A model generated the notes under the pieces. It worked only from the letters and a program-made list of their open reading frames with translations, ran no database searches and was not told where the DNA came from. Both the position numbers and the translations under genes were made by a program. This document shows positions 7,829 to 26,418 of a DNA stretch of 64,000 nt, piece by piece. Positions within the stretch are counted from its first letter, which is position 1; each line of letters begins with the position of its first letter. The stretch is taken from NCBI GenBank assembly GCA_964549765.1, contig CAZJWR010000003.1:48975-112974 (forward strand), given 5' to 3'. The DNA comes from an uncultured Ignavibacteriales bacterium (GTDB lineage Bacteria; Zixibacteria; MSB-5A5; GN15; JAAZOE01).

Positions 7829-10692
7829 TAGAAATTCCATCCGAAAAAGAACTGTGTTTCGGTGTGTTTGGAGATATGATGGAAATCGTGCCGTCGCGCG
7901 ATATCGAAGCGGAGAACAACCAGATACCCAAGAGCGACTCTGAACGAAACCCCGAAGGAACCTTTCCAGGGCTGCCACTTGTCGTCCCAGGCCGCCGCGA
8001 GATCGTGGAAAATGGCGCCCCGGATGCCCCGAAGATGGAAACTGCCCAGCGGGAATGCCACCAGGAAATCATTGATAAGCGGAAAGCGTAGTTCTTCGGA
8101 ATTGAACAGGATATTCCGATTATAGAAGGCCCGGCGGTCATAGCCGCGGAACGACCAGCTGCCGCCCAGGTATATCCGCTGCGGTTCGACCCCGGAGGAT
8201 GAAAACGCAAAGAAGCGGCTCGCGATACAGGACAGATATCCTATGCGAAGATAGTGGCGAATATCGGCCAGCGCCAGCCGGTTAAATTCCTGCTCGCTGC
8301 GGAAGTCATAGGTCCAGCCCACGGTCAGATTGACCCGCCGGCCCTCCAGCGGCCCGGTTGTTTCCCAAAGCGTGTTATCGGTGATGTAGCTCAGCGAAAA
8401 TGTCGTCGGGAGAGCGATGCGGCTGCGGCGAAAACCGACGTCCTTGTCGGAATATCGGGAAAATACGGTCGCCTCGAACCGGTCGAATTTGGAGATCGGG
8501 TAGCCGGCGAAAAGAACGCCGCCAACCTGACGTTCGTAATAATATCCTTCATAATCGTTATAATATTGATCATAAAGGTGGAAGGCGCCGACGCCCCAGT
8601 TCAGCCGCGCCGAACGACGCAGGTAGGTCACGGCGCCGTTGAAACTGGAAAGGAATTCGTCCTTGTTGCGGGCCGTGTTGGAGAGAAGGAAAATAAAAGT
8701 ATTATTGCCCAGCACGTCGCTCATGGCGACCTGGACGCCGCCCAGTGTTCCATAAACTTCATCGTACGCCACTGCCGATTGGGCAATATCCAGAGAATAA
8801 TCGGTGGCATACTTGACCGTGGTCGCCTTGGCGCCGGCGCCGATCTTGCCGGGGAACCATTCACTGTTGACGGGTGGTTCGGTTGCGGCAAACACCGGAG
8901 TGGCTTCTTCAATGGACATTTTGAAAATCTGGAATCCCCGGTTCTGGTAGGCGGAGAAGTATAGTTCATCCGGTTCATCCCCGAAGCGGGGATCATACGC
9001 CCCGGTGATGAAGTGTGTCATTTGAACCATGCCGCCGTCGGGATCGACGCTGAAAATATTGAAGGCGCTCTTATCGCCGCGGTCGGACGAAAACACGATC
9101 TGCGACCCATCGGGACTCTCGGTAGCGCCGCGATCATGGTAAGGACCGTAGGTCAGACGTTCGATGACCCTTTCATCGATCCGATAGCGGTAGAGCGCAA
9201 GATAACCGTCGTACCCCTCTCCCCCGCGATCGCTGGAAAATATAATGGAACGGCCGTCGTGGCCGAAACAGGGATCGACATCATAGTAGATGTCGTCAGT
9301 AAGCCGCGTCAGACCACCGGAGGTCAGATCGAGAATATAGAGATCGGAGTATCCCGATGACCGGCTGCCGGAGAAAACGACCCGTTTACCGTCGGGCGAA
9401 AAATGGGGCGAGGCGATGGCAACGAGGCTGTCAAACTGGTACTTCTCGGTGATCGACCGTTTCTCGATATCATAAAGGTATAGGACGTCTTTTTCCTTGG
9501 ACTTGGACGAGAAGGCCAAGAAACGATTGTCGTACTGGTCGACGCCGCTGGTCATGAGATGCAGCGATTCGAACCGGGCCGACAGGTCGCCTTTGATCAA
9601 CGTGATCGACCGGTCGCTGTCGCCGTCGGCGGGAATCATGTAGATGGCCGAATACCCTTCCTTGTTGGCCTTGTAGATAACCCACTGTTCCAGTTCGCCT
9701 CTCTTATTGGTGAGCGTAACCGGGACCGGCCTGACGGCGAATTGCCGCCGGGTCAGCCGGGTGGCTTTCTTGTCGGGAAGATCAAGCGAGGCGATCTGCG
9801 GGAAATATTTCTTCTTAAGAGAGTAGGTCCATTTTTCCGAGAGCGTGTTCAAATCGTCGCCAAGCGCATACTGCATAAGCTCGTCGAAGCGGCGGCTCAT
9901 GTCCCAGTCGTCGAACAGCCGCGTCAGTTTGTCTTCGCCGTATTCGGCCGAGATAAAATCGCATATCGACTGGCCGAGCTTGTACATGAAATACGATCCC
10001 TCGACCGTCCAGAGCTGTTCAATGGACGGCAGGGTGCCGTTGATGACCATGTCGCGGACGATCAGGTCGGCTTCGCTATCCCATTCCCGCGACCAGTGTT
10101 CGGCCAGCCCCTCGGTAAACCACAGAGGCGGGTAAGCGACCGAATTGCGCCCGTATTCGCGGGCGGTGCGGCTTATTTTGGCGATGGTGAAGACATGGAC
10201 GAGTTCATGGCGGATGACGCGATCGAAATCATAGAAGGAGCCGTTGTATGGGACAACCACGCGCCCCTTGATGAATTCGGTGAATCCGGCGACGTTTTCG
10301 GGCAGCAGCGACCACGTCACGTTGGTTTGCACGAAATAATTGGGATTGCTGTAGATGATCAGCGGAATTTTGGAATAGATCTCAAGATTAAATTTGGCGG
10401 CAAGGAGTCGATAAGAATCCTCGGCCGATTTGGCGGCGATTTCGGCCAGGTCGCCTTCACGGCTGTAGAAATAAATCTTGAAATGGTCGGTGGTCATGAC
10501 CTGCCAGTCGAAGGTGGTGTATTGGACCTTGTTTTTGCCGAAATAATATTGCGCCGACGCGGGCACGGCGGTGATAATCGCGAGGGCTGCGAGAACGAAG
10601 GCGAATATATATCTATGTCGAATCACTCGATATCCAGACAGAACATGGGTGACGTTTTCCACCCTTTTACTCACGGTACTATGACGTATCAT
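7828..10692 (-). CDS. outer-membrane fusion protein: MA-clan metallopeptidase-like domain, TolB-like beta-propeller, Omp85/surface-antigen-type C-terminal beta-barrel
   Basis: Signal/anchor segment, then HELVH plus a downstream WFTEGLAEHW glutamate. TolB/WD40-like repeats follow (SPDGKRVVFSGSR...DLYILDL, GHDGRSIIFSSDRGG, SPDGSQIVFSSDRGD). C-terminal barrel ends in FFFGWNF (terminal Phe). Confidence 0.65.
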   Translation of the reverse strand: MIRHSTVSKRVENVTHVLSGYRVIRHRYIFAFVLAALAIITAVPASAQYYFGKNKVQYTTFDWQVMTTDHFKIYFYSREGDLAEIAAKSAEDSYRLLAAKFNLEIYSKIPLIIYSNPNYFVQTNVTWSLLPENVAGFTEFIKGRVVVPYNGSFYDFDRVIRHELVHVFTIAKISRTAREYGRNSVAYPPLWFTEGLAEHWSREWDSEADLIVRDMVINGTLPSIEQLWTVEGSYFMYKLGQSICDFISAEYGEDKLTRLFDDWDMSRRFDELMQYALGDDLNTLSEKWTYSLKKKYFPQIASLDLPDKKATRLTRRQFAVRPVPVTLTNKRGELEQWVIYKANKEGYSAIYMIPADGDSDRSITLIKGDLSARFESLHLMTSGVDQYDNRFLAFSSKSKEKDVLYLYDIEKRSITEKYQFDSLVAIASPHFSPDGKRVVFSGSRSSGYSDLYILDLTSGGLTRLTDDIYYDVDPCFGHDGRSIIFSSDRGGEGYDGYLALYRYRIDERVIERLTYGPYHDRGATESPDGSQIVFSSDRGDKSAFNIFSVDPDGGMVQMTHFITGAYDPRFGDEPDELYFSAYQNRGFQIFKMSIEEATPVFAATEPPVNSEWFPGKIGAGAKATTVKYATDYSLDIAQSAVAYDEVYGTLGGVQVAMSDVLGNNTFIFLLSNTARNKDEFLSSFNGAVTYLRRSARLNWGVGAFHLYDQYYNDYEGYYYERQVGGVLFAGYPISKFDRFEATVFSRYSDKDVGFRRSRIALPTTFSLSYITDNTLWETTGPLEGRRVNLTVGWTYDFRSEQEFNRLALADIRHYLRIGYLSCIASRFFAFSSSGVEPQRIYLGGSWSFRGYDRRAFYNRNILFNSEELRFPLINDFLVAFPLGSFHLRGIRGAIFHDLAAAWDDKWQPWKGSFGVSFRVALGYLVVLRFDIARRHDFHHISKHTETQFFFGWNF

Positions 10693-14974: not shown

Positions 14975-15119
14975 GTGACAAATTTTTCGCGACGATGGTT
15001 TATCGGCCGCAGCCGCGCTCGTTTCGCCGCCGACATCGAATTCGAATTTGCATCGCCCGGTTTTGGGAACTTTCTGGGGCGGCTGCGATTGTTCTGCCAC
15101 TGAATGCGGGAGGAATGAC

Positions 15120-16685
15120 ATGGCGAATGCACCTCGGGAGCATTGGGGCACGCGAATCGGCGTCATCCTGGCCGTGGCCGGTTCGGCGGTCGGCCTGGGG
15201 AACTTCCTGCGGTTCCCTGTCCAGGCGGCCGAAAACGGCGGCGGGGCATTCATGATCCCCTATCTGCTGGCGCTGGTCTTTATCGGCGTCCCCATGATGT
15301 GGGTGGAATGGACGGCCGGGCGCTATGGCGGCGGCTACGGTCATTCATCGGCTCCCGGCATTTTCCAGGCGTTGTGGAAACGAAACCCGGCCATCAAATA
15401 CGTCGGCGTCCTGGGGATACTCGGGCCGCTTATCATTTACATGTTTTATGTCTATATCGAGTCATGGACGCTGGCCTATTCCTATTATTCCCTGACCGGC
15501 AAACTGACCGCCGCCGCCAACGCCGGTCAGTTGACGGGATTCTTGTCCGGTCTCCAAGGGTTGAGCCAGAACGGCTGGTTTGCCAGCATGGCGCCCGCGT
15601 TCATCTTTTTCTGCATAACGTTTCTCATCAATATCGGGATAACGTATTTCGGCATCCGGGGCGGCATTGAAAAAGTCTGCAATATCGCCCTGCCGATTTT
15701 GCTGATTTTCGGCGTCCTGCTGGCCATCCGCGTGCTGACGCTTTTTGCCCCCGATCCGTTACATCCCGATTGGAGCTCATTCAACGGACTTGGATTCTTA
15801 TGGAATCCCGATTTCTCGGCGTTAAAATCGGGCAAGGTGTGGCTGGCGGCGGCGGGACAGGTGTTTTTCACGCTGTCGCTGGGGATGGGAGTGATACTGA
15901 CCTATTCGAGCTACCTGCGCGAAACCGACGACATCGCCCTCTCCGGGCTGACGGCGGCCAGCACCAACGAATTCGCCGAAGTTATCCTGGGTGGGTCGAT
16001 CATCGTCCCGGCGGCGTTCGTGTTTTTCGGCCCCGAAGGCATCGTCGATATCGCCAAATCGGGCGCGTTCAACCTCGGTTTCGTCACCATGCCGGGGATA
16101 TTCGGGCATCTGCCGCTGGGACAACTGTTCAGTTTCCTCTGGTTCTTTATGCTTTTCCTGGCCGGCATCACGTCGTCGATATCGCTGGCGCAACCGATGG
16201 TCGGCTTTCTGGAAGATGAGTTCGGCATGAGCCGCCGCCGAGCGGTGCTGATATTCGGCATCTTTACGTTTATACTCTGCCAACCGGCGGTATGGTTTCT
16301 ATCCAACGGGGTTGTCGATGATCTTGATTTTTGGGGCGGAAACTTCTTCATCGTCCTTGGCGCCACGATCGAGATTATCCTGGTGGCGTGGATTTTCGGC
16401 ATGGACAAGGCCTGGGCGGAAATGCATGTCGGGTCGAGTATCCGCGTACCTCGGATTTTTCGGTTCATTATCAAGTATATCACGCCGGTGTTTCTCCTGA
16501 TCATTCTCGGGACATGGTTCGTCCAGGACTGGATTCCGTTCATATTTATGGAAGGCGTGCCGTCGGAGAATATCCCCTACGTGCTGGGCACGCGGCTGGG
16601 TATTCTGGCCATATTCGTCCTCCTGTGCGCAATGGTCCGGGTAGCCTGGCAACGAAAGAAACGAGCGGCTCAAAAGGAGGTATGA
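15120..16685 (+). CDS. sodium-dependent transporter, neurotransmitter:sodium symporter (NSS/SNF) family
   Basis: WGTRIGVILAVAGSAVGLGNFLRFP...NGGGAFMIPY is the NSS signature. 11-12 TM segments. Start trimmed to the ATG at 15120 (GGGAGGA RBS). Confidence 0.92.
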   Translation: MANAPREHWGTRIGVILAVAGSAVGLGNFLRFPVQAAENGGGAFMIPYLLALVFIGVPMMWVEWTAGRYGGGYGHSSAPGIFQALWKRNPAIKYVGVLGILGPLIIYMFYVYIESWTLAYSYYSLTGKLTAAANAGQLTGFLSGLQGLSQNGWFASMAPAFIFFCITFLINIGITYFGIRGGIEKVCNIALPILLIFGVLLAIRVLTLFAPDPLHPDWSSFNGLGFLWNPDFSALKSGKVWLAAAGQVFFTLSLGMGVILTYSSYLRETDDIALSGLTAASTNEFAEVILGGSIIVPAAFVFFGPEGIVDIAKSGAFNLGFVTMPGIFGHLPLGQLFSFLWFFMLFLAGITSSISLAQPMVGFLEDEFGMSRRRAVLIFGIFTFILCQPAVWFLSNGVVDDLDFWGGNFFIVLGATIEIILVAWIFGMDKAWAEMHVGSSIRVPRIFRFIIKYITPVFLLIILGTWFVQDWIPFIFMEGVPSENIPYVLGTRLGILAIFVLLCAMVRVAWQRKKRAAQKEV

Positions 16686-16686
16686 T

Positions 16687-16797
16687 ATGGACGTCGGCGG
16701 ATGGATCATGCTGGGATTTATGTGGGGCGGGGTCATCACCCTTTTGATCTACTGCTTCGCGAAAATCCTGACGACGGATAAAAGCACCGAGTTGTAG
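16687..16797 (+). CDS. 36-aa single-TM small protein, candidate NSS transporter small subunit (MetS-like)
   Basis: Not in the ORF track (under 60 aa). The ATG is 1 nt after the NSS stop, with AAGGAGG 8 nt upstream. Translation is MDVGGWIMLGFMWGGVITLLIYCFAKILTTDKSTEL: one hydrophobic helix and a charged tail. Confidence 0.55.
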   Translation: MDVGGWIMLGFMWGGVITLLIYCFAKILTTDKSTEL

Positions 16798-16801
16798 CGA
16801 T

Positions 16802-17560
16802 CTACTCGAGCTTGACACCGACCAGCGTCGGGCAACACTCTCCGGCGTCGTTGGGAACTGACGAGCGATGCCGGTGCACTTCGAAGCCGGCCGCGGCCAT
16901 TTCATCCAGCCATGTCTTCAGGGAAAATAATCCGAGCAAATGACAATCGGTTTCGATGGTTAGCTCTCCCCTCTGGCGGATAAGATAGATCAGGTGGCAT
17001 TCGTACCAGGTATCACCCGGATCGGGATCGTAGCTATTGTCGATGAGAGTGATTTCGATATCGTCTTTGGAATTGGTTAGCACCGTCGTTTTGTTTTGAC
17101 GAAAATCATCGGCGCATTCTTCGACATAAGTCACAAAAACTCCACCCGGACGGAGGTGGCTGTAGGCGGTATTGAACGCGGCGCGAAGGCTTTCGATGGT
17201 GCGCATATAGTTAATCGCGTCGAAGATGGTGACGGCGTCGAATCGATTCCCCAGCCGGACGGAACGCATGTCGCCCCGTACATAGGTAACCTCGGGATTC
17301 AACGCCCGGGCCAGCGACAGCATGTTCTCGCTGATGTCGACACCGGTAACCTGAAAATACCGTTTGAGAGTGTGATCGTTATGCCCGCCCCCGCAACCGA
17401 AATTGATAACCCGTTCCACCGGGATAGACGCGTATTTGCGTATAAGACCGATCATTTCTTCGCTTTCGTCGACGTAATCCTCCGGAGGACTGATGATCGG
17501 CCATGTCCAGGCCAGATCGTCGTACAGGCGCCGTTTGTCGCGACTGACGAATGTCTTCAT
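16802..17560 (-). CDS. class I SAM-dependent methyltransferase, substrate unknown
   Basis: Motif I INFGCGGGHND. Downstream motifs VTGVDISENML and FDAVTIFDAINY. GGGGAGAG RBS. Lies 44 nt downstream of the Mre11-like gene on the same strand. Confidence 0.8.
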   Translation of the reverse strand: MKTFVSRDKRRLYDDLAWTWPIISPPEDYVDESEEMIGLIRKYASIPVERVINFGCGGGHNDHTLKRYFQVTGVDISENMLSLARALNPEVTYVRGDMRSVRLGNRFDAVTIFDAINYMRTIESLRAAFNTAYSHLRPGGVFVTYVEECADDFRQNKTTVLTNSKDDIEITLIDNSYDPDPGDTWYECHLIYLIRQRGELTIETDCHLLGLFSLKTWLDEMAAAGFEVHRHRSSVPNDAGECCPTLVGVKLE

Positions 17561-17604
17561 ACTCTCCCCTGTCTCATCCGTTGAAAGAATGCGATCTATC
17601 TATA

Positions 17605-18708
17605 TTACGACTCTTCGGCCTCGGCGCGACGAAGAAAATCCAGAGCCAGCTCCCGCAATTTATCCTTGTCGAGGTGTTCGATCTTTTTGGCGTCGAGGAA
17701 TTTGGAGAAGGCCTGATCCAGCCGCCCCAGATTCAAATCGGCGTAAAGGTTCTCCTCGGGCTTTTCCTCTTTCTCGAAACGCACATCGAGCGAAAAGGCC
17801 TCGTTTTTCAGGGCCGCGATACGGTCGAAGGGCAGTGCCCGGTAGGTTTCCTCGGGAATGTCGGTCAGCCGGATACGGATGATTTTGTCTTCGGGCCGCT
17901 GAGCCCGGACGGCGTTTTCGAGTTTCGCGACGATATCGTCGGCACTTTGTCCCCTGGCGTCGACGGCCGGAAGATCGAGCATGACGCGCGACGGGGTTTC
18001 GTGAAAGACGATCTTGTTTTCACCGGCATCAAGATTTACCTCGACGAATCCCTTGGCGTGTCCCGCTTCGGACTGCGACAGCCGTTCGGTCGATCCGGAA
18101 TAATAAACCATCGGTTCGACCTCGGTGTAGTTGTGATAATGTCCCAGGGCGACATAATCGAATCCCCGGTGAAAATAGGATGAGGCGATTTCCTGCTCGG
18201 ACAGATCGGCCATCTGGAATTCCTTGATACCGGCGACGACGCCGTGCAGCATGAGGATATTATATTTCGCGTCGGGATCGGGTTCGATTTTATTCAATTC
18301 ATCTTTGAGGATATCCGGCGTCAGGCAATGCGGCACGGCGGAAACGCTGCATTCGCCGATGCGCAGCCGTTCGTACCGGGACTGGTATATGACATGGATG
18401 TTTTCGAAATCCCTGAAAATCGACAGCACTGCCCCGATATGCTTCTGCTTGGGGGCGTCATGATTGCCGGAGATGATCACCGTCGGGATGTTCGCTTCGC
18501 GTCCCAGCCGCAGGAGATGCTCCGTGGCGAAGGCGATAATCCGGTTGGGTGGATGCACCATATGGAAGAGATCGCCGGCGTTGATGACGATATCCGGCTT
18601 GAGCGCAATGATGCGATCTACCGCCTCGGCGAAACTATCGAGGATGTCCTGCTGGCGGCGGTCGCTTCCGGCGCCGAGATGATTATCTGCAAAATGGACG
18701 ATCCGCAT
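17605..18708 (-). CDS. Mre11/SbcD-family metallophosphoesterase nuclease
   Basis: Calcineurin-like phosphoesterase motifs in order: HFADNHLG, AGDLFH, SGNHD, LMLHG, GHYH. Length and the C-terminal capping-like region fit Mre11/SbcD. Confidence 0.85.
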   Translation of the reverse strand: MRIVHFADNHLGAGSDRRQQDILDSFAEAVDRIIALKPDIVINAGDLFHMVHPPNRIIAFATEHLLRLGREANIPTVIISGNHDAPKQKHIGAVLSIFRDFENIHVIYQSRYERLRIGECSVSAVPHCLTPDILKDELNKIEPDPDAKYNILMLHGVVAGIKEFQMADLSEQEIASSYFHRGFDYVALGHYHNYTEVEPMVYYSGSTERLSQSEAGHAKGFVEVNLDAGENKIVFHETPSRVMLDLPAVDARGQSADDIVAKLENAVRAQRPEDKIIRIRLTDIPEETYRALPFDRIAALKNEAFSLDVRFEKEEKPEENLYADLNLGRLDQAFSKFLDAKKIEHLDKDKLRELALDFLRRAEAEES

Positions 18709-18710
18709 GG

Positions 18711-20279
18711 TTAGAAGAAATCATCCGGGATTTTGTCTTTGACGTCGTCTGCTTTGCTATTGGCACGATTCTTCAAATAGTCTTCATAGAGAAATATCTT
18801 GAGCGGCAGGGCGAACGGTACGGTCGGCGACGTCAGCAGCGCCTCGCCGGCGGCCAGCGTCTGGATTTCGGTGCCGAGGGCGGAGATGTCCTGTTTGGCC
18901 GAGGAACGCATGATGGTGCGGTCGCGTTCATCGGCCAGTCCGAGGATGAAAATGGAATTGAGCTGCGACAGGAGTTCCTCGGAGAGCAATTTGGGCTGCT
19001 GCGTGATAACGCCTAGGCCGACTTTGAATTTACGACCCTCGCGGACAACCTGGTGGAAAATATTGCTGTCGCCCGCCGATGCTCCCAAGACCCGTTGCGC
19101 CTCTTCGAGCATGATCAGGCAGGGAGTGAGTGTGTCGAATTCTTCTCCCGATTGGTATTTGTATCTATAGCTGTTCAGGACGGCGCGGGTGAGCACGGAT
19201 GTGACCATCGTCTCTTCGGGAGTCGACAAATTGGCGGAATCGACCAGCACGGTGTATCCGTTTTGCAGGCGATTAACGACGTCGCCGCAAGTGGAGACGG
19301 ACGAATCGAAATTGACGGTTTTGAAGTCCTCAAAACGTTGGGCGCGGCGTTTGAGCACGCCCAGAGTCGCCTCCTGGAATGACGCGCTGGAAGCGGTCAA
19401 CTCTTCGGCCAAGGATTCGATGTCTTTTCGTATCAACGTCCGCAGCCATTCCCTGCCATATTTGATGCGCACCGCCCAGAGGGCCTCCCGCTGGGCCTGC
19501 GTGAAGCTGAAAATCTGCTCGACGTCCTCGATTTCGATTTCATTGATGGAGATGGACAAGCTGTTGTGTTCGCCCTTTAATTTTCGCCGGGTATACGTGG
19601 ACAGGCGTTTCCCTGCCAGAGGGTGATCGGCCAGCCCCTTGCGCCGCCCCTTGCCCCCGTCGTGATATTCTCCGTGGGGGTCGAACATCAGCAGACCGTA
19701 ACCCCGACTTTCCATTACAGCGGCGGCGAGCACCTTCATCAGGTTCGATTTACCCATGCCGGTCGTGGCGAAAATACCGAGGTGCTGCGACAGCGACCGT
19801 CCCTCAATGCCGAGCGGCAATTCCATGATCATCTCGCCGCAGCGGAGATTGCCAACGATAAGATCGCCGCTGTAATCCTTGAGAAATGTCATGGTTTCCT
19901 GATCGGGCAACGTCACCCGTGAAAAATGGGCCGGAATCGAACGGGGTCGATGAAATCGTCCCTGATACACGTAGCCGAGTGGCGAGCATTTGGCCAGCTT
20001 ATACAAACGGCGGTCGGGATCGTGGATGCGATACGAACGGCCGTGCAGGTCCTCCTCCATCATCCGGCCGGCGGCTTTTTCGGCCCAATTAGCCTCGGCG
20101 CTCTCGTGACCGTAACTGATGTCGGTGATGCGCAGGAGATATTTCCGACCGGTCTGCTCGTCGTCGGCCATGACGATACCGCCGATGGACAACGGGGTGG
20201 TATAGAGGGAGCGGAAATGCAGTTCCGCTGCCGACCGTCCCACCAAACGTCCGATAAATGTCTGATTCGATTCGCTCAT
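18711..20279 (-). CDS. herA: HerA-like FtsK/HerA-superfamily ATPase (DUF87 type)
   Basis: N-terminal HAS-barrel-like region, Walker A GIFATTGMGKSN, Walker B-like CLIMLEEAQR, and a downstream VITQQP motif. The start overlaps the NurA-like stop by 4 nt. Confidence 0.8.
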   Translation of the reverse strand: MSESNQTFIGRLVGRSAAELHFRSLYTTPLSIGGIVMADDEQTGRKYLLRITDISYGHESAEANWAEKAAGRMMEEDLHGRSYRIHDPDRRLYKLAKCSPLGYVYQGRFHRPRSIPAHFSRVTLPDQETMTFLKDYSGDLIVGNLRCGEMIMELPLGIEGRSLSQHLGIFATTGMGKSNLMKVLAAAVMESRGYGLLMFDPHGEYHDGGKGRRKGLADHPLAGKRLSTYTRRKLKGEHNSLSISINEIEIEDVEQIFSFTQAQREALWAVRIKYGREWLRTLIRKDIESLAEELTASSASFQEATLGVLKRRAQRFEDFKTVNFDSSVSTCGDVVNRLQNGYTVLVDSANLSTPEETMVTSVLTRAVLNSYRYKYQSGEEFDTLTPCLIMLEEAQRVLGASAGDSNIFHQVVREGRKFKVGLGVITQQPKLLSEELLSQLNSIFILGLADERDRTIMRSSAKQDISALGTEIQTLAAGEALLTSPTVPFALPLKIFLYEDYLKNRANSKADDVKDKIPDDFF

Positions 20280-21343
20280 GGTATGGTCGTGTCCAGCAAG
20301 TCCGCGTTTAGACGGTCATGCGCGTCTCCTGATAGATAATGCCATAGTTCGCGGGGAAAGTCAATATGTTCGAGGGCGCGTTCGAGCGTTTCGCAGATGT
20401 GGTTTCGCAGAATTCCATCGATACGGGCCAGCCGATGGGCCGCCGCCAAGGGATAAGGATAGCCCGCGAATTCGATATCATCCGAAATCGAAACCAGCGC
20501 GGCGAAAACATCGTCGATATCATCATCGTAGCGATTGATGTCTATTCGATACGGTTTGTCCGCATACGAATGCAACTGGGCCAAGTAGATATTGCCCAGC
20601 CAGCCGCTCGTTTCGGGCAGATCCCGATTCAGGCGCCTGTACCACAGGCCGGTGCCAGCATCCTTCGGTGCGGTGTCACCCATACGGCTGTCCAGCGGAA
20701 GCGAGTTATTGACCGACAGCGAGCTTTGTTTCGTTACCGCGGCGACATGGATTTTTCGTTCCGTTGCGAGGCGCATGAGACGCCGCTGATGTTCCAGGTT
20801 GAACGCCGGATGTCCCCGGAGCGAACCATCGACAAGGACCAGACTATCCGATTCCGCGTCCTCGATCAGACTTTCGAGCAGCCGCCATTCGGCCAGCCAG
20901 CGGAGATCATCGACCGCTCGCGCCGGAACCGACGGATTATATCCGCCGGGAATGTCGGCGGCGTATTCGCGGACGATGTCGGCCGCCGCCGAGCGATCAT
21001 AAGCGACGACTTCCGGCGGTGAACATTGCTCCCGCAGGCGGACCCGGTCGCGGAAACACACCATCCCCGCCCGCCATGCGATCACCTCGGCCAGGCCGCC
21101 GTATCCGACGACGGCCGACCCGCCGTCGACGGCGTAAACCGTGGCAACATGAGCCGCGGCAGTTATGTCATGTCTCGGGGCGTCGTCAAGGGATTTGACC
21201 AATTGCGGCGATCCTATCTTGTCGTCGGTCGGCATGGATTCCTGCTGGGCCGGGGTGGCGGCGTAGAGAGTCTTCAATTCGCGCGCCACGCGGGCAGCGG
21301 TGTCGTATTCGAGACAATTATGTTCGCCGGTAACGTAGGGCAT
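20276..21343 (-). CDS. nurA: NurA-like nuclease
   Basis: NurA-type catalytic Asp motifs AVDGGS and LVLVDGSLRG, plus the position directly upstream of herA. The start codon is uncertain: the ATG at 21343 has no RBS and abuts a terminator T-tract. Confidence 0.65.
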   Translation of the reverse strand: MPYVTGEHNCLEYDTAARVARELKTLYAATPAQQESMPTDDKIGSPQLVKSLDDAPRHDITAAAHVATVYAVDGGSAVVGYGGLAEVIAWRAGMVCFRDRVRLREQCSPPEVVAYDRSAAADIVREYAADIPGGYNPSVPARAVDDLRWLAEWRLLESLIEDAESDSLVLVDGSLRGHPAFNLEHQRRLMRLATERKIHVAAVTKQSSLSVNNSLPLDSRMGDTAPKDAGTGLWYRRLNRDLPETSGWLGNIYLAQLHSYADKPYRIDINRYDDDIDDVFAALVSISDDIEFAGYPYPLAAAHRLARIDGILRNHICETLERALEHIDFPRELWHYLSGDAHDRLNADLLDTTIP

Positions 21344-21344
21344 G

Positions 21345-21375
21345 AAAAAATATATGCGGCCAGCGAGCCGGCCGC
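21345..21375 (-). terminator. intrinsic terminator after the NtrC-type regulator gene
   Basis: Minus strand reads GCGGCCGGCTCGCTGGCCGC (6-7 bp GC stem, 6-nt loop) followed by ATATATTTTTT. Confidence 0.6.
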
Positions 21376-21424
21376 AAGTTTATATCAGAACGGATAGACA
21401 AAAATGTGATCGGCGAACGGGGTG

Positions 21425-22858
21425 TTAATATATTCCGTAGCGGCTGATACGATCACGGAGGGTATTGCGCGAAATCCCCAGCATTTCCGAGGCTTTCACT
21501 TGGTTCGAATTGTAATGCTTGAGACAGGCGGCGATCAGCGCCTTTTCCATCGACGATTGCATCAATTGATAGGCGCGGCCGAAACTTCCGGCCACCAAGC
21601 GCGGGAAAATCGGGTCGATGAGCCGTTCGAACATGGCCATGTAATCTTCCTGGAGGCTTTCCAGATCGATTTCGATCTTGTTGTTTTCCTCATTGAAGAT
21701 CGGAAAATCTTCAGCCTGCAATTCATCGTTCTTGGCCATGACCATAGCGGTATGGATGTTGTTTTCCAGTTCGCGGACGTTTCCCGGCCAGATGTATTTA
21801 TTCAGCATCGTCTTGGCTTTTTTGGAGACGGACTTGATGTTGCTATTGAGCGTCTTGTTGTACTTTTTGATAAAATGATCGACGAGAAGCGACACGTCTT
21901 CCTTGCGCTCTCTCAGCGGCGGCATATAAATGGACACAACTTTCAGGCGATAGAACAGATCGACGCGGAAGGAACCGTCCTTCATGCACTGCACCAACGA
22001 TTTATTGGTGGCGGCGATAATCCGGACGTCGACTTTGATGGTTTCGTTGCCGCCGAGCCGTTCGAATTCCTTTTCCTGCAATACCCGAAGGACTTTGCCC
22101 TGGGTCAGCATAGACATATCGGCGACTTCGTCGAGGAAAATCGTCCCCTGGTCGCACTGTTCGAATTTACCGATGCGCTTGAAGTAGGCTCCGGTAAAAG
22201 CGCCCTTTTCATGACCGAACAGTTCCGATTCGAGCAGGGTATCGGAAAGGGCTGCACAGTTGACCGATAAAAACAGATTGTTTCGCCGCAGGCTGTTGCG
22301 ATGGATGGCCCGCGCCACCAGTTCCTTGCCCGTGCCCGACTCACCGAATATCAGTACCGCCGCGTCGGTCTTGGCCACCTGACCGATCAATTTGGCGATT
22401 TCGACGATTTCAGGAGATTGCCCGACGATTTCATCGGGAACATGTTCGTCCTCGGCGGGGGGCTGTTCCGGGTGACGGCGCGATTCCTGGCGCCCGAACC
22501 CGCAGGCTTTATTGACCGTATCGATCAGCTTGTTCACTTCGAACGGTTTGGTCAGGTACTCGTATGCCCCCTCCCGCATCGCCTCCATGGCGTTTTCGGT
22601 GGAGATGAATCCGGAGATGACGATCACTGGCAGTTTCTGGTCGATCTTTTTTATGTCTCGCAGGACATCGAGGCCGGAGCAGGAAGGGAGATTCACGTCG
22701 AGCATGACCAGGTCAAGATCTTCCTTGTTGGCGGTGACATACCGGGATGTCTCCTGCCCGTCATCAAGACGGTGGAAGGCGTACTTCTCCGGGTCGAATA
22801 GATTTATTACCGAATTTGAGAGATCAATATCGTCATCGACAAGCAGTATGTTCTTCAT
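21425..22858 (-). CDS. sigma-54-dependent response regulator (NtrC family: REC, AAA+, Fis-type HTH)
   Basis: Receiver domain (LLVDDD...VMLDVNLP...KPF), AAA+ Walker A GESGTGKE, canonical GAFTGA, and a C-terminal HTH ([20 protein letters not shown]). Confidence 0.93.
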
Positions 22859-22964
22859 GTATTTCGGTCCCCATAAGTTACTATGGTATAGTATTCTAAT
22901 CGGTTGAATCGGGGGGTTATTTAGCGGGAATTGTGCAAATTCTTAACGATGAAAAAAATAAATG

Positions 22965-24320
22965 TCATTTGCGGAGATTGTATTTTTCGATGAGATCATA
23001 AAGCGTGGTCCGGCTGGTGTTCAATTCACGGCTGACCCGTGAAATATTCCAGTTGTTGCGCACGAGCGAATCGGTCAGGCAGTTTTTTTCAGCCTCTTCC
23101 CGTATCTCCTGAAGCGATCGGGGCTTATGATTCTCACCGGATGCGTTCGGGAGCGGCAGGTCGGCCGGCTTTATCTTCTTGTCGCGAGCCATGATAACCG
23201 CCCGCTTGATCTTATTCTCGAGCTCCCGGACATTCCCCGGCCACGGGTAAGCAGCGATGGCCCGGGCGGCGGCCTCGGTCAGAGACAGATTGGGCATATT
23301 ATTCTCCTGACCATAACGATTCAGGAATGTCGTCGCCAGCAGTAAAATATCGTCGCCGCGGTCGCGCAGAGGCGGCATATCGATGGTGATGACCGACAGC
23401 CGATAATACAAATCCTCGCGGAACGTGCTGCCATTGACCTCCTCCATCAGATCGCGGTTGGTGGCAGCCAGGATACGTACATCAAGGCTGATTTTCTCAT
23501 GGCCGCCCACCCGTTCGATACTGCGGTCTTCGAGGACGCGCAGGAGTTTGACTTGCAGTTTCAGCGACAGTTCGCCGATTTCATCAAGGAAAATCGTGCC
23601 GCCGTCGGCCATCTCGAATTTGCCCCGCTTCTGGGCATGGGCGTCGGTGAAAGACCCTTTTTCGTGGCCGAATAATTCGGATTCCAAGAGGTTTTCGGGA
23701 ATGGCGCCGCAGTTGATAGTCACAAAGGGACCTTTATGCCTGGGGCTGGAGGCGTGAATCGCCTTGGCGACCAATTCCTTGCCGGTGCCGGATTCCCCGG
23801 TTATCAGCACGGTGTAGTCGCTGCCGGCAACAGTTTTGACGACCTTGAAGACATCGAGCATCTTATCGGAATCGCCGATGATGTTCTCAAAACTCTTGAT
23901 CCGCGCCAATTCCGAGGTCAATTCGCTGTTTTCTCGTTCCAGCCGGGCGACGTTGATGCCGCGTTCGATGATGATACTGAGCTGGTCTAAATCGATCGGT
24001 TTGGTAAAGAAATCATATGCTCCCAGTCGAATGGCCGTAAGGGCGTTTTTATGCTCGCCATGACCGGTGACCATGATAACCTTGCAGAACGGGTTCAGGT
24101 CCAGATATTTCTCGATCAGATGGATGCCTTCGGCCGCGCCGTCGCGCGACGTTAGCGCGATATCCTGCAGGATGATCAGCGGCCGGTGCTTCTCCGCCTG
24201 CTCCAGCGCATCGTCGGTCCCTTCCGCTTCGAGGACATGATACTTGTCGACCATGGCCCACTTTAATTGTGACCGGATACCCTCGTCGTCGTCGACGATC
24301 ATGATTTTCTGCTTATCCAC
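22965..24320 (-). CDS. sigma-54-dependent response regulator, PrsR-like (PEP-CTERM-box regulator type)
   Basis: [18 protein letters not shown] and [17 protein letters not shown] resemble PrsR as I recall it. AAA+ GESGTGKE. The sigma-54 contact loop is GSFTDA rather than GAFTGA. HTH is [19 protein letters not shown]. Confidence 0.85.
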
Positions 24321-26418
24321 GTCGATATTCTCCCGGCAGATAAATGACGAATTCGGCGCCGTTGCCCGGTTCGCTGATCACCTCCATCCGACCCCGGTGG
24401 GCCATGACGATCTCCCGTGACTGGTACATGCCGATCCCGAGACCGTGCGGCTTGGTCGAGGCGAACGGTTTGAACAGCCGCGTCGAGATGAATTCCTGCT
24501 CCAGGCCGGGCCCGGTATCGGCAATCGACACGGCCACGACCCCGTCGCTGTCGGACGGCCGGGTCGTGATGGTCAGCTTTCCGCCATCGGGCATGGCTTC
24601 GATCGCGTTCATGACAAGATTATCGAACACGGAACCGATTTTTTCATTATCGGCGATTATGACCACGTTGTGATCCACAGCGACCGTCGTAACGATTGGT
24701 TTTATCGTTTCTATCCTGACCCGTTTCAGGGTCTTGTGTATCAAGGCGGACAGGTTGACTTCTTCCAAATATAGTTTATCCTCAGTTTTCTCTTCCGTCA
24801 AGCGCGATATGATTTTTTTCTGGCGGTTGACGGCCTTGGCGATGGTCAGGATGGCTTCCTTCTGGAATTCCGGGTTGCTCATGTTCTTTTCGGCGTTCTG
24901 CATCAGCATCGACAGCATGGCCACGGAGTTTTTCAGATCGTGCAGCACAAACGACGAAAATCGATGAAATGATTCGATCTCGCGCGAGATCATGATTTCG
25001 TCGGTCATGCGCGCCGCCAGGATGGTCAAGGCCACGGGGTTGGAGGCGGCCTCGATGAAAGCGATCTCATCCGACGACAGAGGCCGGCCGGAGGCGTGGA
25101 CGCTGACGCCCCAAAAGCCCAGTGGCTGCTGGCGGGCGATGAATGGCACCAGCAGGAATATTTCAAACGGGGCGGCTTTCTTCACGATATCGATCTGGGC
25201 CGATTCATCGGGAGCTTTTTCCCGAAGGGTGGACAGTTCCACGGGATGGCCGAACCGAGACAGCCAGTCGCACAGACGGTCGAGATTTTCGGCGGGTATG
25301 CCGCGATCGATGCCGTCGCCGCAATATAAGGTGTAATTGATCGACGGGGCCGGTTCTTTGATGACAAACAGGCAATGGTCGATCTTGAGCAAGCGGCGCA
25401 GGAGTTCCCCGGTCCGGGAATAGATGGCGTCCATTTCGAGAGTCACGGAAACCTCTTCGGCGAATTCCTTCCATTCGGCGGCGTACGGGCTTTTGGCCCG
25501 GAATGGCGTCCCCGGCGACGGATCGACCTTGAACCGCGACCGCAGCGCCTGCGAGGCAACGAGAATAATAAAGGTGACGACCATCAGCAGGAGTACGGCC
25601 AGGGAAAAGAACATCCCCTCGTCGAGGTTGTACTTGACCAGAAATTCTCCGACGGCGCCGATGATCAGGAAGTATATGCCGAATAAGACCACGACCAAAG
25701 ACGAGTAGACGCCCCGGCGGGTCAGAATGATGCCGTCATTGGAGGGATCGAACAGAATATAATGCCGGGCCGCGGGAACGCTGACCAGGGCGAATAGCAA
25801 AAAGGTGATGGAGAGGATCAGGTCGCCGACCCGCCCATAGAGGACGGCCACAGTCGCGACGCCGAGCAGGCTGATGGCATACGCCAGAAGCGGAAAGAAA
25901 GATCGCTTAATCCTCTCCCGCGCCAACCCCAGCGACGACCGGTAGCAAATCTCGATGGCGTACGCCCCGGCGGTGACGCTGACGATGAGGAAAGCCGACA
26001 GCCAGAAATATATGCGGCCGAGATCGAGAAACCATCCCCGGTTTACGATAACAAGATCGATCGAACCGGTTATCCAGAAATACACGAACATGACACCGGA
26101 TAGCGCGAGAAAAAAATAGAAGAGAATTCCCGACATGCGCGGCCTCTCGGCGACATCCAATCCCCACCGGGAAGCGAGAGCATACCAGCCGAACGGCAAA
26201 AAGGCCACGAAGAAATAGAGCATGATGTAGCCGAGAACCCAGAGCGCCGAAACTTGGCTCGATTCGATGATTCCGGCGGTGATACCCAGGAGATTGACGA
26301 CGATGAGAAAAAGGAAGGGGCGGGTGTACGGAGCCAACCCCCGTTTCAACAAGACCAGGCCGCCGGCAATGATGAGAATTCCTCCGGCGACATAGTGCAT
26401 TGTCGCGATCGGGTTCAT
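24313..26418 (-). CDS. polytopic sensor histidine kinase, PrsK-like (multi-TM N-terminus, GAF-like region, HisKA, HATPase)
   Basis: About 300 aa of TM helices, then a GAF-like region, an H-box (SFVLHDLKNS), N box (DNLVMNAIEA), and G boxes (DTGPGL, GLGIGM). Overlaps the downstream regulator by 8 nt. Confidence 0.85.
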   Translation of the reverse strand: MNPIATMHYVAGGILIIAGGLVLLKRGLAPYTRPFLFLIVVNLLGITAGIIESSQVSALWVLGYIMLYFFVAFLPFGWYALASRWGLDVAERPRMSGILFYFFLALSGVMFVYFWITGSIDLVIVNRGWFLDLGRIYFWLSAFLIVSVTAGAYAIEICYRSSLGLARERIKRSFFPLLAYAISLLGVATVAVLYGRVGDLILSITFLLFALVSVPAARHYILFDPSNDGIILTRRGVYSSLVVVLFGIYFLIIGAVGEFLVKYNLDEGMFFSLAVLLLMVVTFIILVASQALRSRFKVDPSPGTPFRAKSPYAAEWKEFAEEVSVTLEMDAIYSRTGELLRRLLKIDHCLFVIKEPAPSINYTLYCGDGIDRGIPAENLDRLCDWLSRFGHPVELSTLREKAPDESAQIDIVKKAAPFEIFLLVPFIARQQPLGFWGVSVHASGRPLSSDEIAFIEAASNPVALTILAARMTDEIMISREIESFHRFSSFVLHDLKNSVAMLSMLMQNAEKNMSNPEFQKEAILTIAKAVNRQKKIISRLTEEKTEDKLYLEEVNLSALIHKTLKRVRIETIKPIVTTVAVDHNVVIIADNEKIGSVFDNLVMNAIEAMPDGGKLTITTRPSDSDGVVAVSIADTGPGLEQEFISTRLFKPFASTKPHGLGIGMYQSREIVMAHRGRMEVISEPGNGAEFVIYLPGEYRRG

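Follow-up and report, generated by a model that had tools for sequence, protein, structure and literature searches.

The window analyzed here, a 64,000-nucleotide stretch of chromosome from an uncultured bacterium of the phylum Zixibacteria, carries four neighbouring genes on its minus strand, preceded by a promoter-like element:

21349..21377, minus strand: promoter-like element, read from the sequence at the level of consensus
21377..21372, minus strand: -35 hexamer TTGCGG of this element, followed by a 17-nt spacer
21354..21349, minus strand: -10 hexamer TATATT, ending 5 nt before the nurA ATG
20276..21343, minus strand: nurA, ORF of 355 aa
18711..20279, minus strand: herA, ORF of 522 aa
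17605..18708, minus strand: mre11 (Mre11/SbcD), ORF of 367 aa
17614..17730, minus strand: part of mre11 for the C-terminal helix-loop-helix (aa 327-365), matching the Rad50-binding domain
16802..17560, minus strand: class I SAM methyltransferase (MTase) gene, ORF of 252 aa

The junctions are exactly as tight as the first-pass annotation had described them. The nurA and herA genes overlap by 4 nt (ATGA), and only the 2 nt CC separate the herA stop codon TAA from the mre11 ATG. The ORF coordinates likewise agree with an MTase gene on the same strand 44 nt downstream of mre11. Related loci were sorted into type A (nurA-herA-mre11), type B (solo mre11) and type C (rad50-linked). Conservation of the neighbourhood was borne out, with the nurA-herA-mre11 unit kept in L001/L011, L007, L009, L010 and L050. 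Across all type A loci herA and mre11 are separated by -1 to 11 nt and are translationally coupled, and the flanks of the locus show conserved housekeeping synteny in dozens of genomes.

Because the -10 hexamer ends 5 nt before the ATG, the nurA transcript is probably leaderless. Type A and type B loci share this promoter motif, with TATATT standing 5-7 nt ahead of the first start codon, that of nurA and of mre11 respectively; in type C loci nurA has none in front of it. A hairpin resembling a terminator, between nurA and the response-regulator gene, was considered and rejected; it is the palindromic spacer of the promoter element, and the spacers of L001, L007, L009 and L010 have no palindrome. 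Taken together, nurA, herA and mre11 appear to form one translationally coupled operon, read from a conserved promoter that lies immediately ahead of nurA.

Gene products of the locus

All three family assignments to be checked by HMM (NurA, DUF87/HerA and Metallophos) scored above the curated Pfam cut-offs. For NurA (PF09376) the score was 41.7 bits, with a cut-off of 21. A phmmer search of the PDB with the window NurA alone gave no match and a profile from orthologues was needed; built from 13 of them, it matched Sulfolobus NurA 2ygk with an E-value of 5.8e-8. Residues D73, E152, D172 and H303 are invariant in these 13 orthologues, and in the alignment with 2ygk the DGGS and DGSL motifs coincide. 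The Asp motifs AVDGGS and LVLVDGSL noticed earlier are both present. The 355-aa product is thus a NurA-family protein, a predicted 5'-3' nuclease that would have the RNase H-like fold and dimeric state of NurA.

The 522-aa product is a translocase of the HerA/FtsK superfamily, predicted to be hexameric. It scores 95.2 bits with Pfam DUF87/HerA (cut-off 23.2), and among solved structures S. solfataricus HerA 4d2i is nearest to it (1.3e-24, HerA aa 136-502). The alignments begin at aa 136, behind the N-terminal part in which a NurA-docking HAS barrel would be expected. Walker A reads GMGKSN and Walker B MLEE; the longer motifs originally pointed out, GIFATTGMGKSN and MLEEAQR, are in place. Among NCBIfam models HerA_Thermprot is the best, at 96 bits, and HerA_antiphage reaches 53 bits. 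HerA is closer to repair-type HerA models and to the Sulfolobus enzyme than to antiphage HerA models. PADLOC gives partial matches of HerA to its HerA models and to mad8, which would favour a role in defence, but these cover the C-terminal ATPase part only and PADLOC gives nothing for NurA. A scan of viral contigs with HerA found no relative.

Mre11 scores 47.8 bits with Pfam Metallophos (cut-off 21.5) and 86 bits with NCBIfam TIGR00619 sbcd (cut-off 77.65), and its profile matches M. jannaschii Mre11 at 3.7e-35. The five phosphoesterase motifs attributed to it are all present; D8/H10, D46, N82/H83, H155 and H190/H192 are invariant in an alignment of 54 sequences. In the AF2 model (pLDDT 90.5) a nuclease domain (aa 1-215) is followed by a capping domain (about aa 216-313) and a linker. 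Foldseek places the model closest to Mre11 chains of the Mre11-Rad50 complexes 3av0 and 5dny, the best match being 3av0_A with 385 aligned columns; E. coli SbcD, from SbcCD structures, is also among the Foldseek and HMM matches.

Behind the poorly conserved linker the model has two C-terminal helices, at 327-340 and 348-365. Residues L330, F334 and L359 of these helices are invariant among 14 sequences from lineages with and without an adjacent rad50 gene, and almost invariant across the 54 aligned sequences. Mean pairwise identity of the helix-loop-helix is 54.5% in clade B, in which rad50 is unlinked, and 55.5% in clade C, compared with 33-38% for the linker. In the rad50-unlinked clades its conservation is about that of the capping domain. 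By sequence and model, the window Mre11 keeps the Rad50-binding domain, a predicted Rad50 contact under constraint.

The MTase scores 63.1 bits with Pfam Methyltransf_25 (cut-off 27). Among solved structures it is nearest to two dTDP-sugar N,N-dimethyltransferases, DesVI (3bxo, 1.2e-20) and TylM1 (3pfg), and its 33 matches include no DNA methyltransferase. PADLOC matches it to the SAM domain of mad2, a point in favour of defence. L091, which lacks nurA and herA, has the gene beside mre11; L010, L050 and L008 do not have it. It would be a small-molecule or sugar-type enzyme, predicted to be of the sugar N-methyltransferase type, and is probably a same-strand neighbour sharing the locus and not part of the repair machinery.

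Location of rad50

The first-pass annotation found no Rad50/SbcC in the window, and this was confirmed over the 64 kb: the Rad50 HMM matched no window ORF of at least 60 aa, and Pfam detected no SMC-like protein among the ten largest other ORFs. The window therefore does not hold the archaeal-type end-resection operon as a single four-gene cluster, and no type A locus has rad50 within 10 kb.

Relatives do carry such clusters. In other Zixibacteria, nurA-herA-(ICMT)-mre11-rad50-SNase-S54RR clusters occur at L004, L005/L035, L014, L015, L025 (whose contig begins inside herA), L041, L046 and L088, and the Actinomycetota locus L006 has nurA-herA-mre11-rad50. These bacteria thus do not bear out the assumption that HerA and NurA form stand-alone pairs in bacteria. 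Since other Zixibacteria and some Actinomycetota have the full four-gene cluster, the window is a derived, split form. The Mre11 tree puts the window in clade A and the rad50-linked clade C outside clades A and B; the deep-branching L050, with nurA-herA-mre11 and no rad50, is basal to clades A and B. Clade A also includes the closed genome JAWLBI010000001.1, which carries nurA-herA-mre11-MTase, and clade B the chromosomes OY760907.1 and CP070756.1. The nurA-herA pair was lost at least three times with mre11 left in place, and mre11 stands at the locus without nurA-herA in about 35 species (type B loci, L008 and L091). No assembly appears twice among the best 80 loci listed, as it might if clade A or B genomes held a paralogous second mre11-rad50 cluster.

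An unlinked rad50 is found in the clade-A metagenome-assembled genome (MAG) GCA_036480375.1. Its mre11 (P0039, MEE9443375.1), whose product is 64% identical to the window Mre11, lies on JAZGGI010000037.1 at a window-type locus in the order S54RR-S54RR-mre11-MTase-SNF. Another contig, JAZGGI010000028.1, carries an intact rad50 of 800 aa (P0514, MEE9442886.1) followed by SNase; nurA-herA is absent from this genome. In L089 and L090, from two further assemblies, rad50 has the same neighbours as at this second locus, in the order LIAS, response regulator/GAF/HD, peptidase M50, rad50, SNase. The unlinked rad50 has kept its CxxC zinc hook, its SGGE signature and both Walker motifs, A and B, and the unlinked rad50-SNase loci hold no remnants of mre11, herA or nurA. 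A type C Rad50 used as protein query found only type C proteins among its best 120 matches, which makes this search uninformative on clades A and B.

From this one clade-A MAG, in which a binning error is possible, and from conservation, rad50 most likely lies unlinked elsewhere in the window's genome. We infer that nurA-herA-mre11 and an unlinked rad50 occur together in one genome.

A probable split resection system and its alternatives

We consider it likely that the locus belongs to a lineage-specific, split form of the archaeal-type NurA-HerA-Mre11-Rad50 system for double-strand-break end resection, on the chromosome of a Zixibacterium. This reading rests on the gene identities, the conserved catalytic residues, the sister four-gene cluster, the unlinked rad50 in the same clade and the retained Rad50-binding domain. 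It would be an ordinary repair system in an odd gene arrangement, because rad50 has most likely only been relocated in the chromosome. By analogy with the archaeal and Deinococcus systems, Mre11 dimers would be bound through their C-terminal helix-loop-helix to Rad50 from the separate rad50-SNase locus, and Mre11-Rad50 would recognise DNA ends and nick or trim them. [quoted passage not shown]

Known systems fit this scheme in part. In thermophilic archaea herA, mre11, rad50 and nurA form one operon (PMC3326311). The same four protein families occur in the operons of Sulfolobus and Pyrococcus; S. solfataricus supplies the best match for the window HerA and NurA, M. jannaschii that for Mre11, and related Zixibacteria and Actinomycetota hold all four genes in one cluster. 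The window, however, comes from the metagenomic genome of a bacterium of the FCB group and not from a thermophilic archaeon. Its gene order is nurA-herA-mre11 with a probably leaderless start, and rad50 would be detached and paired with the SNase gene at another locus.

Bacterial precedents also exist. The NurA-HerA pair of Deinococcus radiodurans is co-transcribed and used in end resection (PMC9960219). Like this pair and Thermus HepA, the window has a bacterial NurA-HerA pair; here, in contrast, it is joined with mre11 in one operon descended from a four-gene cluster, and it is dispensable, having been lost repeatedly within the clade. With SbcCD and Mre11-Rad50 the window Mre11 shares the five phosphoesterase motifs, the capping domain and the helix-loop-helix at its C-terminus, whereas the gene for the partner ATPase is not adjacent and in clades A and B would lie elsewhere in the genome.

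The first-pass annotation had suggested a Rad50-independent machine, in which HerA took over from Rad50 as the ATPase that works with Mre11, and NurA-HerA-Mre11 is self-sufficient in resection. We regard this as improbable. The translational coupling of herA with mre11 and the missing rad50 next to type A loci speak for it, and Rad50 in the window's own genome is deduced from one relative's MAG and from conservation. Moreover, contact between HerA and Mre11 is plausible, because archaeal HerA, Mre11 and Rad50 co-precipitate, a direct interaction documented in Sulfolobus (PMC2288612). Yet the intact unlinked rad50 of the clade-A genome, the four-gene relatives and the Rad50-binding helices retained under constraint all argue against substitution. 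In addition, Mre11 does not depend on HerA, since mre11 persists in so many species from which nurA-herA is gone. There is similarly little chance that a stable NurA-HerA-Mre11 assembly lies behind the herA-mre11 coupling and resects without Rad50, or that Rad50-SNase is only a separate, exchangeable sensor module. If true, such an assembly would be a bacterial resection machine with Mre11 driven by a hexameric translocase.

A chance neighbourhood, in which the Mre11-like gene encodes a generic phosphoesterase functionally unrelated to the adjoining NurA-HerA, is very unlikely. Most Zixibacteria do have mre11 at the window-type locus without nurA-herA. Against this, the gene product has the complete Mre11 architecture, capping domain and Rad50-binding helices included; archaea and the sister lineages also group these three families with rad50; and the coupling has been kept from L050 through to the window.

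The defence role that the first-pass annotation had entertained, with a HerA ATPase, the nucleases NurA and Mre11 and a methyltransferase for modification as an anti-phage module, we think hardly credible. In its favour, nurA-herA is patchy among close relatives and, as in Sir2-HerA, DUF4297-HerA and MADS, a HerA-family ATPase adjoins nucleases, with weak PADLOC matches. But these matches are partial and generic, and for no described system were the components matched at full length. Sir2, DUF4297 and other mad genes are missing, the locus sits in conserved chromosomal synteny, the methyltransferase does not resemble DNA methyltransferases and is not tied to nurA-herA, and the ancestor is an mre11-rad50 repair cluster.

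Probable archaeal-type end resection in Zixibacteria

As a probable split form of a known repair system, the cluster opens no new mechanism. Our literature search found no paper on Zixibacteria and Mre11. The present data suggest that archaeal-type NurA-HerA-Mre11-Rad50 resection is widespread in this uncultured phylum and occurs also in some Actinomycetota. A missing rad50 beside mre11 is not evidence of loss; the operon would have been split, with rad50 left together with the SNase gene. Moreover, the repeated loss of nurA-herA with mre11 kept in place offers a natural series for asking what NurA-HerA may add to bacterial Mre11-Rad50.

Four consecutive minus-strand genes

20276..21343, minus: nurA-like, 355 aa
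18711..20279, minus: herA-like, 522 aa
17605..18708, minus: mre11-like, 367 aa
16802..17560, minus: methyltransferase, 252 aa

These four ORFs are consecutive on one strand, and their coordinates agree with the tight coupling described in the first-pass annotation: nurA and herA share 4 nt, the mre11 ATG lies 2 nt past the herA stop, and the methyltransferase gene follows mre11 after 44 nt. NurA, HerA, Mre11/SbcD and the methyltransferase all exceed curated Pfam/NCBIfam thresholds. NurA scored 41.7 bits against Pfam NurA (cut-off 21), upholding the family of the 355-aa protein; HerA scored 95.2 bits against DUF87/HerA, the methyltransferase 63.1 bits against Methyltransf_25, and Mre11 47.8 bits against Metallophos and 86 bits against NCBIfam TIGR00619 (sbcd; cut-off 77.65). 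The motifs quoted earlier were found in the window proteins, and, as claimed, no SMC/Rad50-like protein is encoded within the 64-kb window. The cluster is genuine and was read correctly. Close homologues are labelled Zixibacteria.

Window HerA matched S. solfataricus HerA (4d2i) at 1.3e-24 and scored 96 bits with NCBIfam HerA_Thermprot versus 53 bits with the antiphage HerA model; on sequence comparison it is nearest to repair-type HerA. NurA is divergent in sequence, and a profile of 13 orthologues, in which D73, E152, D172 and H303 are invariant, matched Sulfolobus NurA (2ygk) at 5.8e-8. The predicted Mre11 structure is confident (pLDDT 90.5): the nuclease domain is followed by a capping domain, then by a linker and a pair of C-terminal helices. 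Its top Foldseek matches are Mre11 chains of M. jannaschii Mre11-Rad50 complexes.

The nearest solved relatives of the methyltransferase are the dTDP-sugar N,N-dimethyltransferases DesVI and TylM1, with no DNA methyltransferase among its structure-database matches. Its gene is missing from the relatives' loci L010, L050 and L008, and is kept beside mre11 in L091, where nurA-herA is absent. It is apparently a neighbour of the locus, not a partner of NurA-HerA. Unrelated methyltransferases recur beside these repair genes, as seen from ICMT/PEMT-family genes that separate herA from mre11 in some of the type C clusters (L004 11847-12422, L005 11721-12296) and a UbiE-like gene upstream of nurA in L004 (8077-8820).

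Gene arrangements and promoter-like element in relatives

Loci were compared by neighbourhood look-ups and a one-genome-per-species scan listing at least 80 loci, all annotated with HMMs made from seed genes, and three arrangements were found among them. Type A, that of the window, runs sigma-54 response regulator (S54RR), nurA-herA-mre11, sometimes the methyltransferase, then a convergent SNF transporter gene (window, L001/L011, L007, L009, L010). L050 has the same regulator and nurA-herA-mre11, followed by convergent minus-strand genes in place of SNF. Conservation of the three-gene unit is thus borne out by type A and L050, and herA-mre11 coupling is kept throughout type A (gaps between -1 and 11 nt). 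In type B, mre11 alone stands between the same flanking genes, in at least about 35 species among the loci listed, complete chromosomes included; L008, within clade A of the Mre11 tree, also has a solo mre11. Type C, nurA-herA-(ICMT)-mre11-rad50-SNase-S54RR, occurs in Zixibacteria L004, L005/L035, L014, L015, L025 (partial, the contig beginning within herA), L041 and L046, and in the deep-branching L088. Actinomycetota L006 carries nurA-herA-mre11-rad50, and rad50 adjoins mre11 in archaeal loci too. The mre11 loci look orthologous, one per genome, because no assembly occurs twice among 80 loci listed.

21377..21349, minus: promoter-like element TTGCGG-N17-TATATT, conserved in relatives

This element (-35 TTGCGG, 17-nt spacer, -10 TATATT) stands upstream of whichever gene opens the unit: nurA in type A, mre11 in type B. 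This suggests that nurA-herA separate mre11 from a promoter of its own. Across loci, 5-7 nt lie between the end of the -10 and the ATG (5 nt for nurA in the window), which suggests a leaderless transcript. A terminator-like hairpin upstream of nurA was rejected: it is the spacer of this element, and its 9-bp palindrome occurs in the window only. In L008, the intergenic region at 9893-10003, without nurA-herA, carries ATGTTACCCGGGAAC just past the promoter, resembling the 5' end of window nurA, ACGTTACCGGCGAAC; it may be a nurA deletion scar.

Upstream in the window (21425-26418, minus) lie a 701-aa histidine kinase gene and a tandem pair of sigma-54-dependent response regulator genes, an arrangement also present in L001 and L091; the nearest regulator gene adjoins the mre11 unit of types A and B in dozens of genomes. 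A 36-aa hydrophobic ORF (16687-16797, plus) directly follows the SNF-family transporter gene (15048-16685), and gene calls of similarly small size (38-40 aa) occur at this position in L001 and L002.

A probably unlinked rad50

The window cluster is best explained as an archaeal-type end-resection system whose rad50 is unlinked. A protein search with type C Rad50 gave, among the matches listed, type C proteins only. Searching representatives at 50% identity with a profile led to a distinct Rad50 group of roughly 800 aa, which has about 33% identity to the type C proteins and includes one member labelled Zixibacteria (P0514, MEE9442886.1). Three loci of this group (L087, L089, L090) share the order lipoyl synthase, response regulator (GAF + HD), peptidase M50 (opposite strand), rad50, SNase. 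Their rad50 genes encode intact Walker A, zinc hook, signature and Walker B motifs, and no mre11, herA or nurA, or remnants of these, was found at these loci. A cluster look-up with clade-A/B Mre11 gave P0039 (MEE9443375.1), a clade-A Mre11 64% identical to that of the window. Its locus, L091, lies on another contig of GCA_036480375.1, the assembly holding L087, and has window-type synteny (S54RR-S54RR-mre11-methyltransferase-SNF-BacA-GT9); therefore one clade-A genome has both genes, apart. The link rests on this one MAG, itself without nurA-herA, and on conservation arguments.

The C-terminal helix-loop-helix of Mre11 is conserved at 54.5% within rad50-unlinked clade B versus 55.5% within clade C, far above the linker (33-38%), and L330, F334 and L359 are invariant in all types; this conservation supports a Rad50 encoded elsewhere. 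The earlier proposal that HerA replaces Rad50 as the Mre11 motor runs against both the unlinked rad50 of GCA_036480375.1 and the conserved helices. A defence role for the NurA/Mre11/methyltransferase combination, also raised earlier, is unlikely: PADLOC gave only partial HerA/mad8 matches and a mad2 SAM-domain match in the window, and none for NurA, no relatives of window HerA were found in viral contigs, and the flanks are conserved housekeeping genes.

In every Zixibacteria rad50 locus, regardless of mre11 linkage, a 209-aa SNase-domain gene with a weak Ada Zn-binding match directly follows rad50, often overlapping it by 1-8 nt. The Actinomycetota cluster L006 lacks this gene. The SNase-domain protein may be an extra component of the Mre11-Rad50 system.

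SNase genes after rad50
L087: 12400-13029
L089: 12400-13029
L090: 12416-13051
L088: 11584-12213
L004: 16200-16826
L005: 16165-16794

Probable history and function of the cluster

In neighbour-joining trees of Mre11 on identity distances, L050 is basal to clades A and B, with clade C outside. The likeliest history begins with an ancestral four-gene cluster, followed by the mre11/rad50 split in the ancestor shared by L050, A and B, and later loss of nurA-herA in clade B, L008 and L091. In the KSB1 group, L064, L066, L068, L072 and L073 have same-family mre11 without adjacent rad50, and in L085 rad50 lies 460 nt downstream of mre11. Splitting may have happened more than once.

Direct interaction of HerA, Mre11 and Rad50 is known from Sulfolobus (PMC2288612), and may be why herA-mre11 coupling is conserved. 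By analogy with archaea and Deinococcus (PMC3326311, PMC9960219, PMC2288612), Mre11-Rad50 would recognise and trim the DNA end, and HerA-NurA would resect the 5' strand processively.
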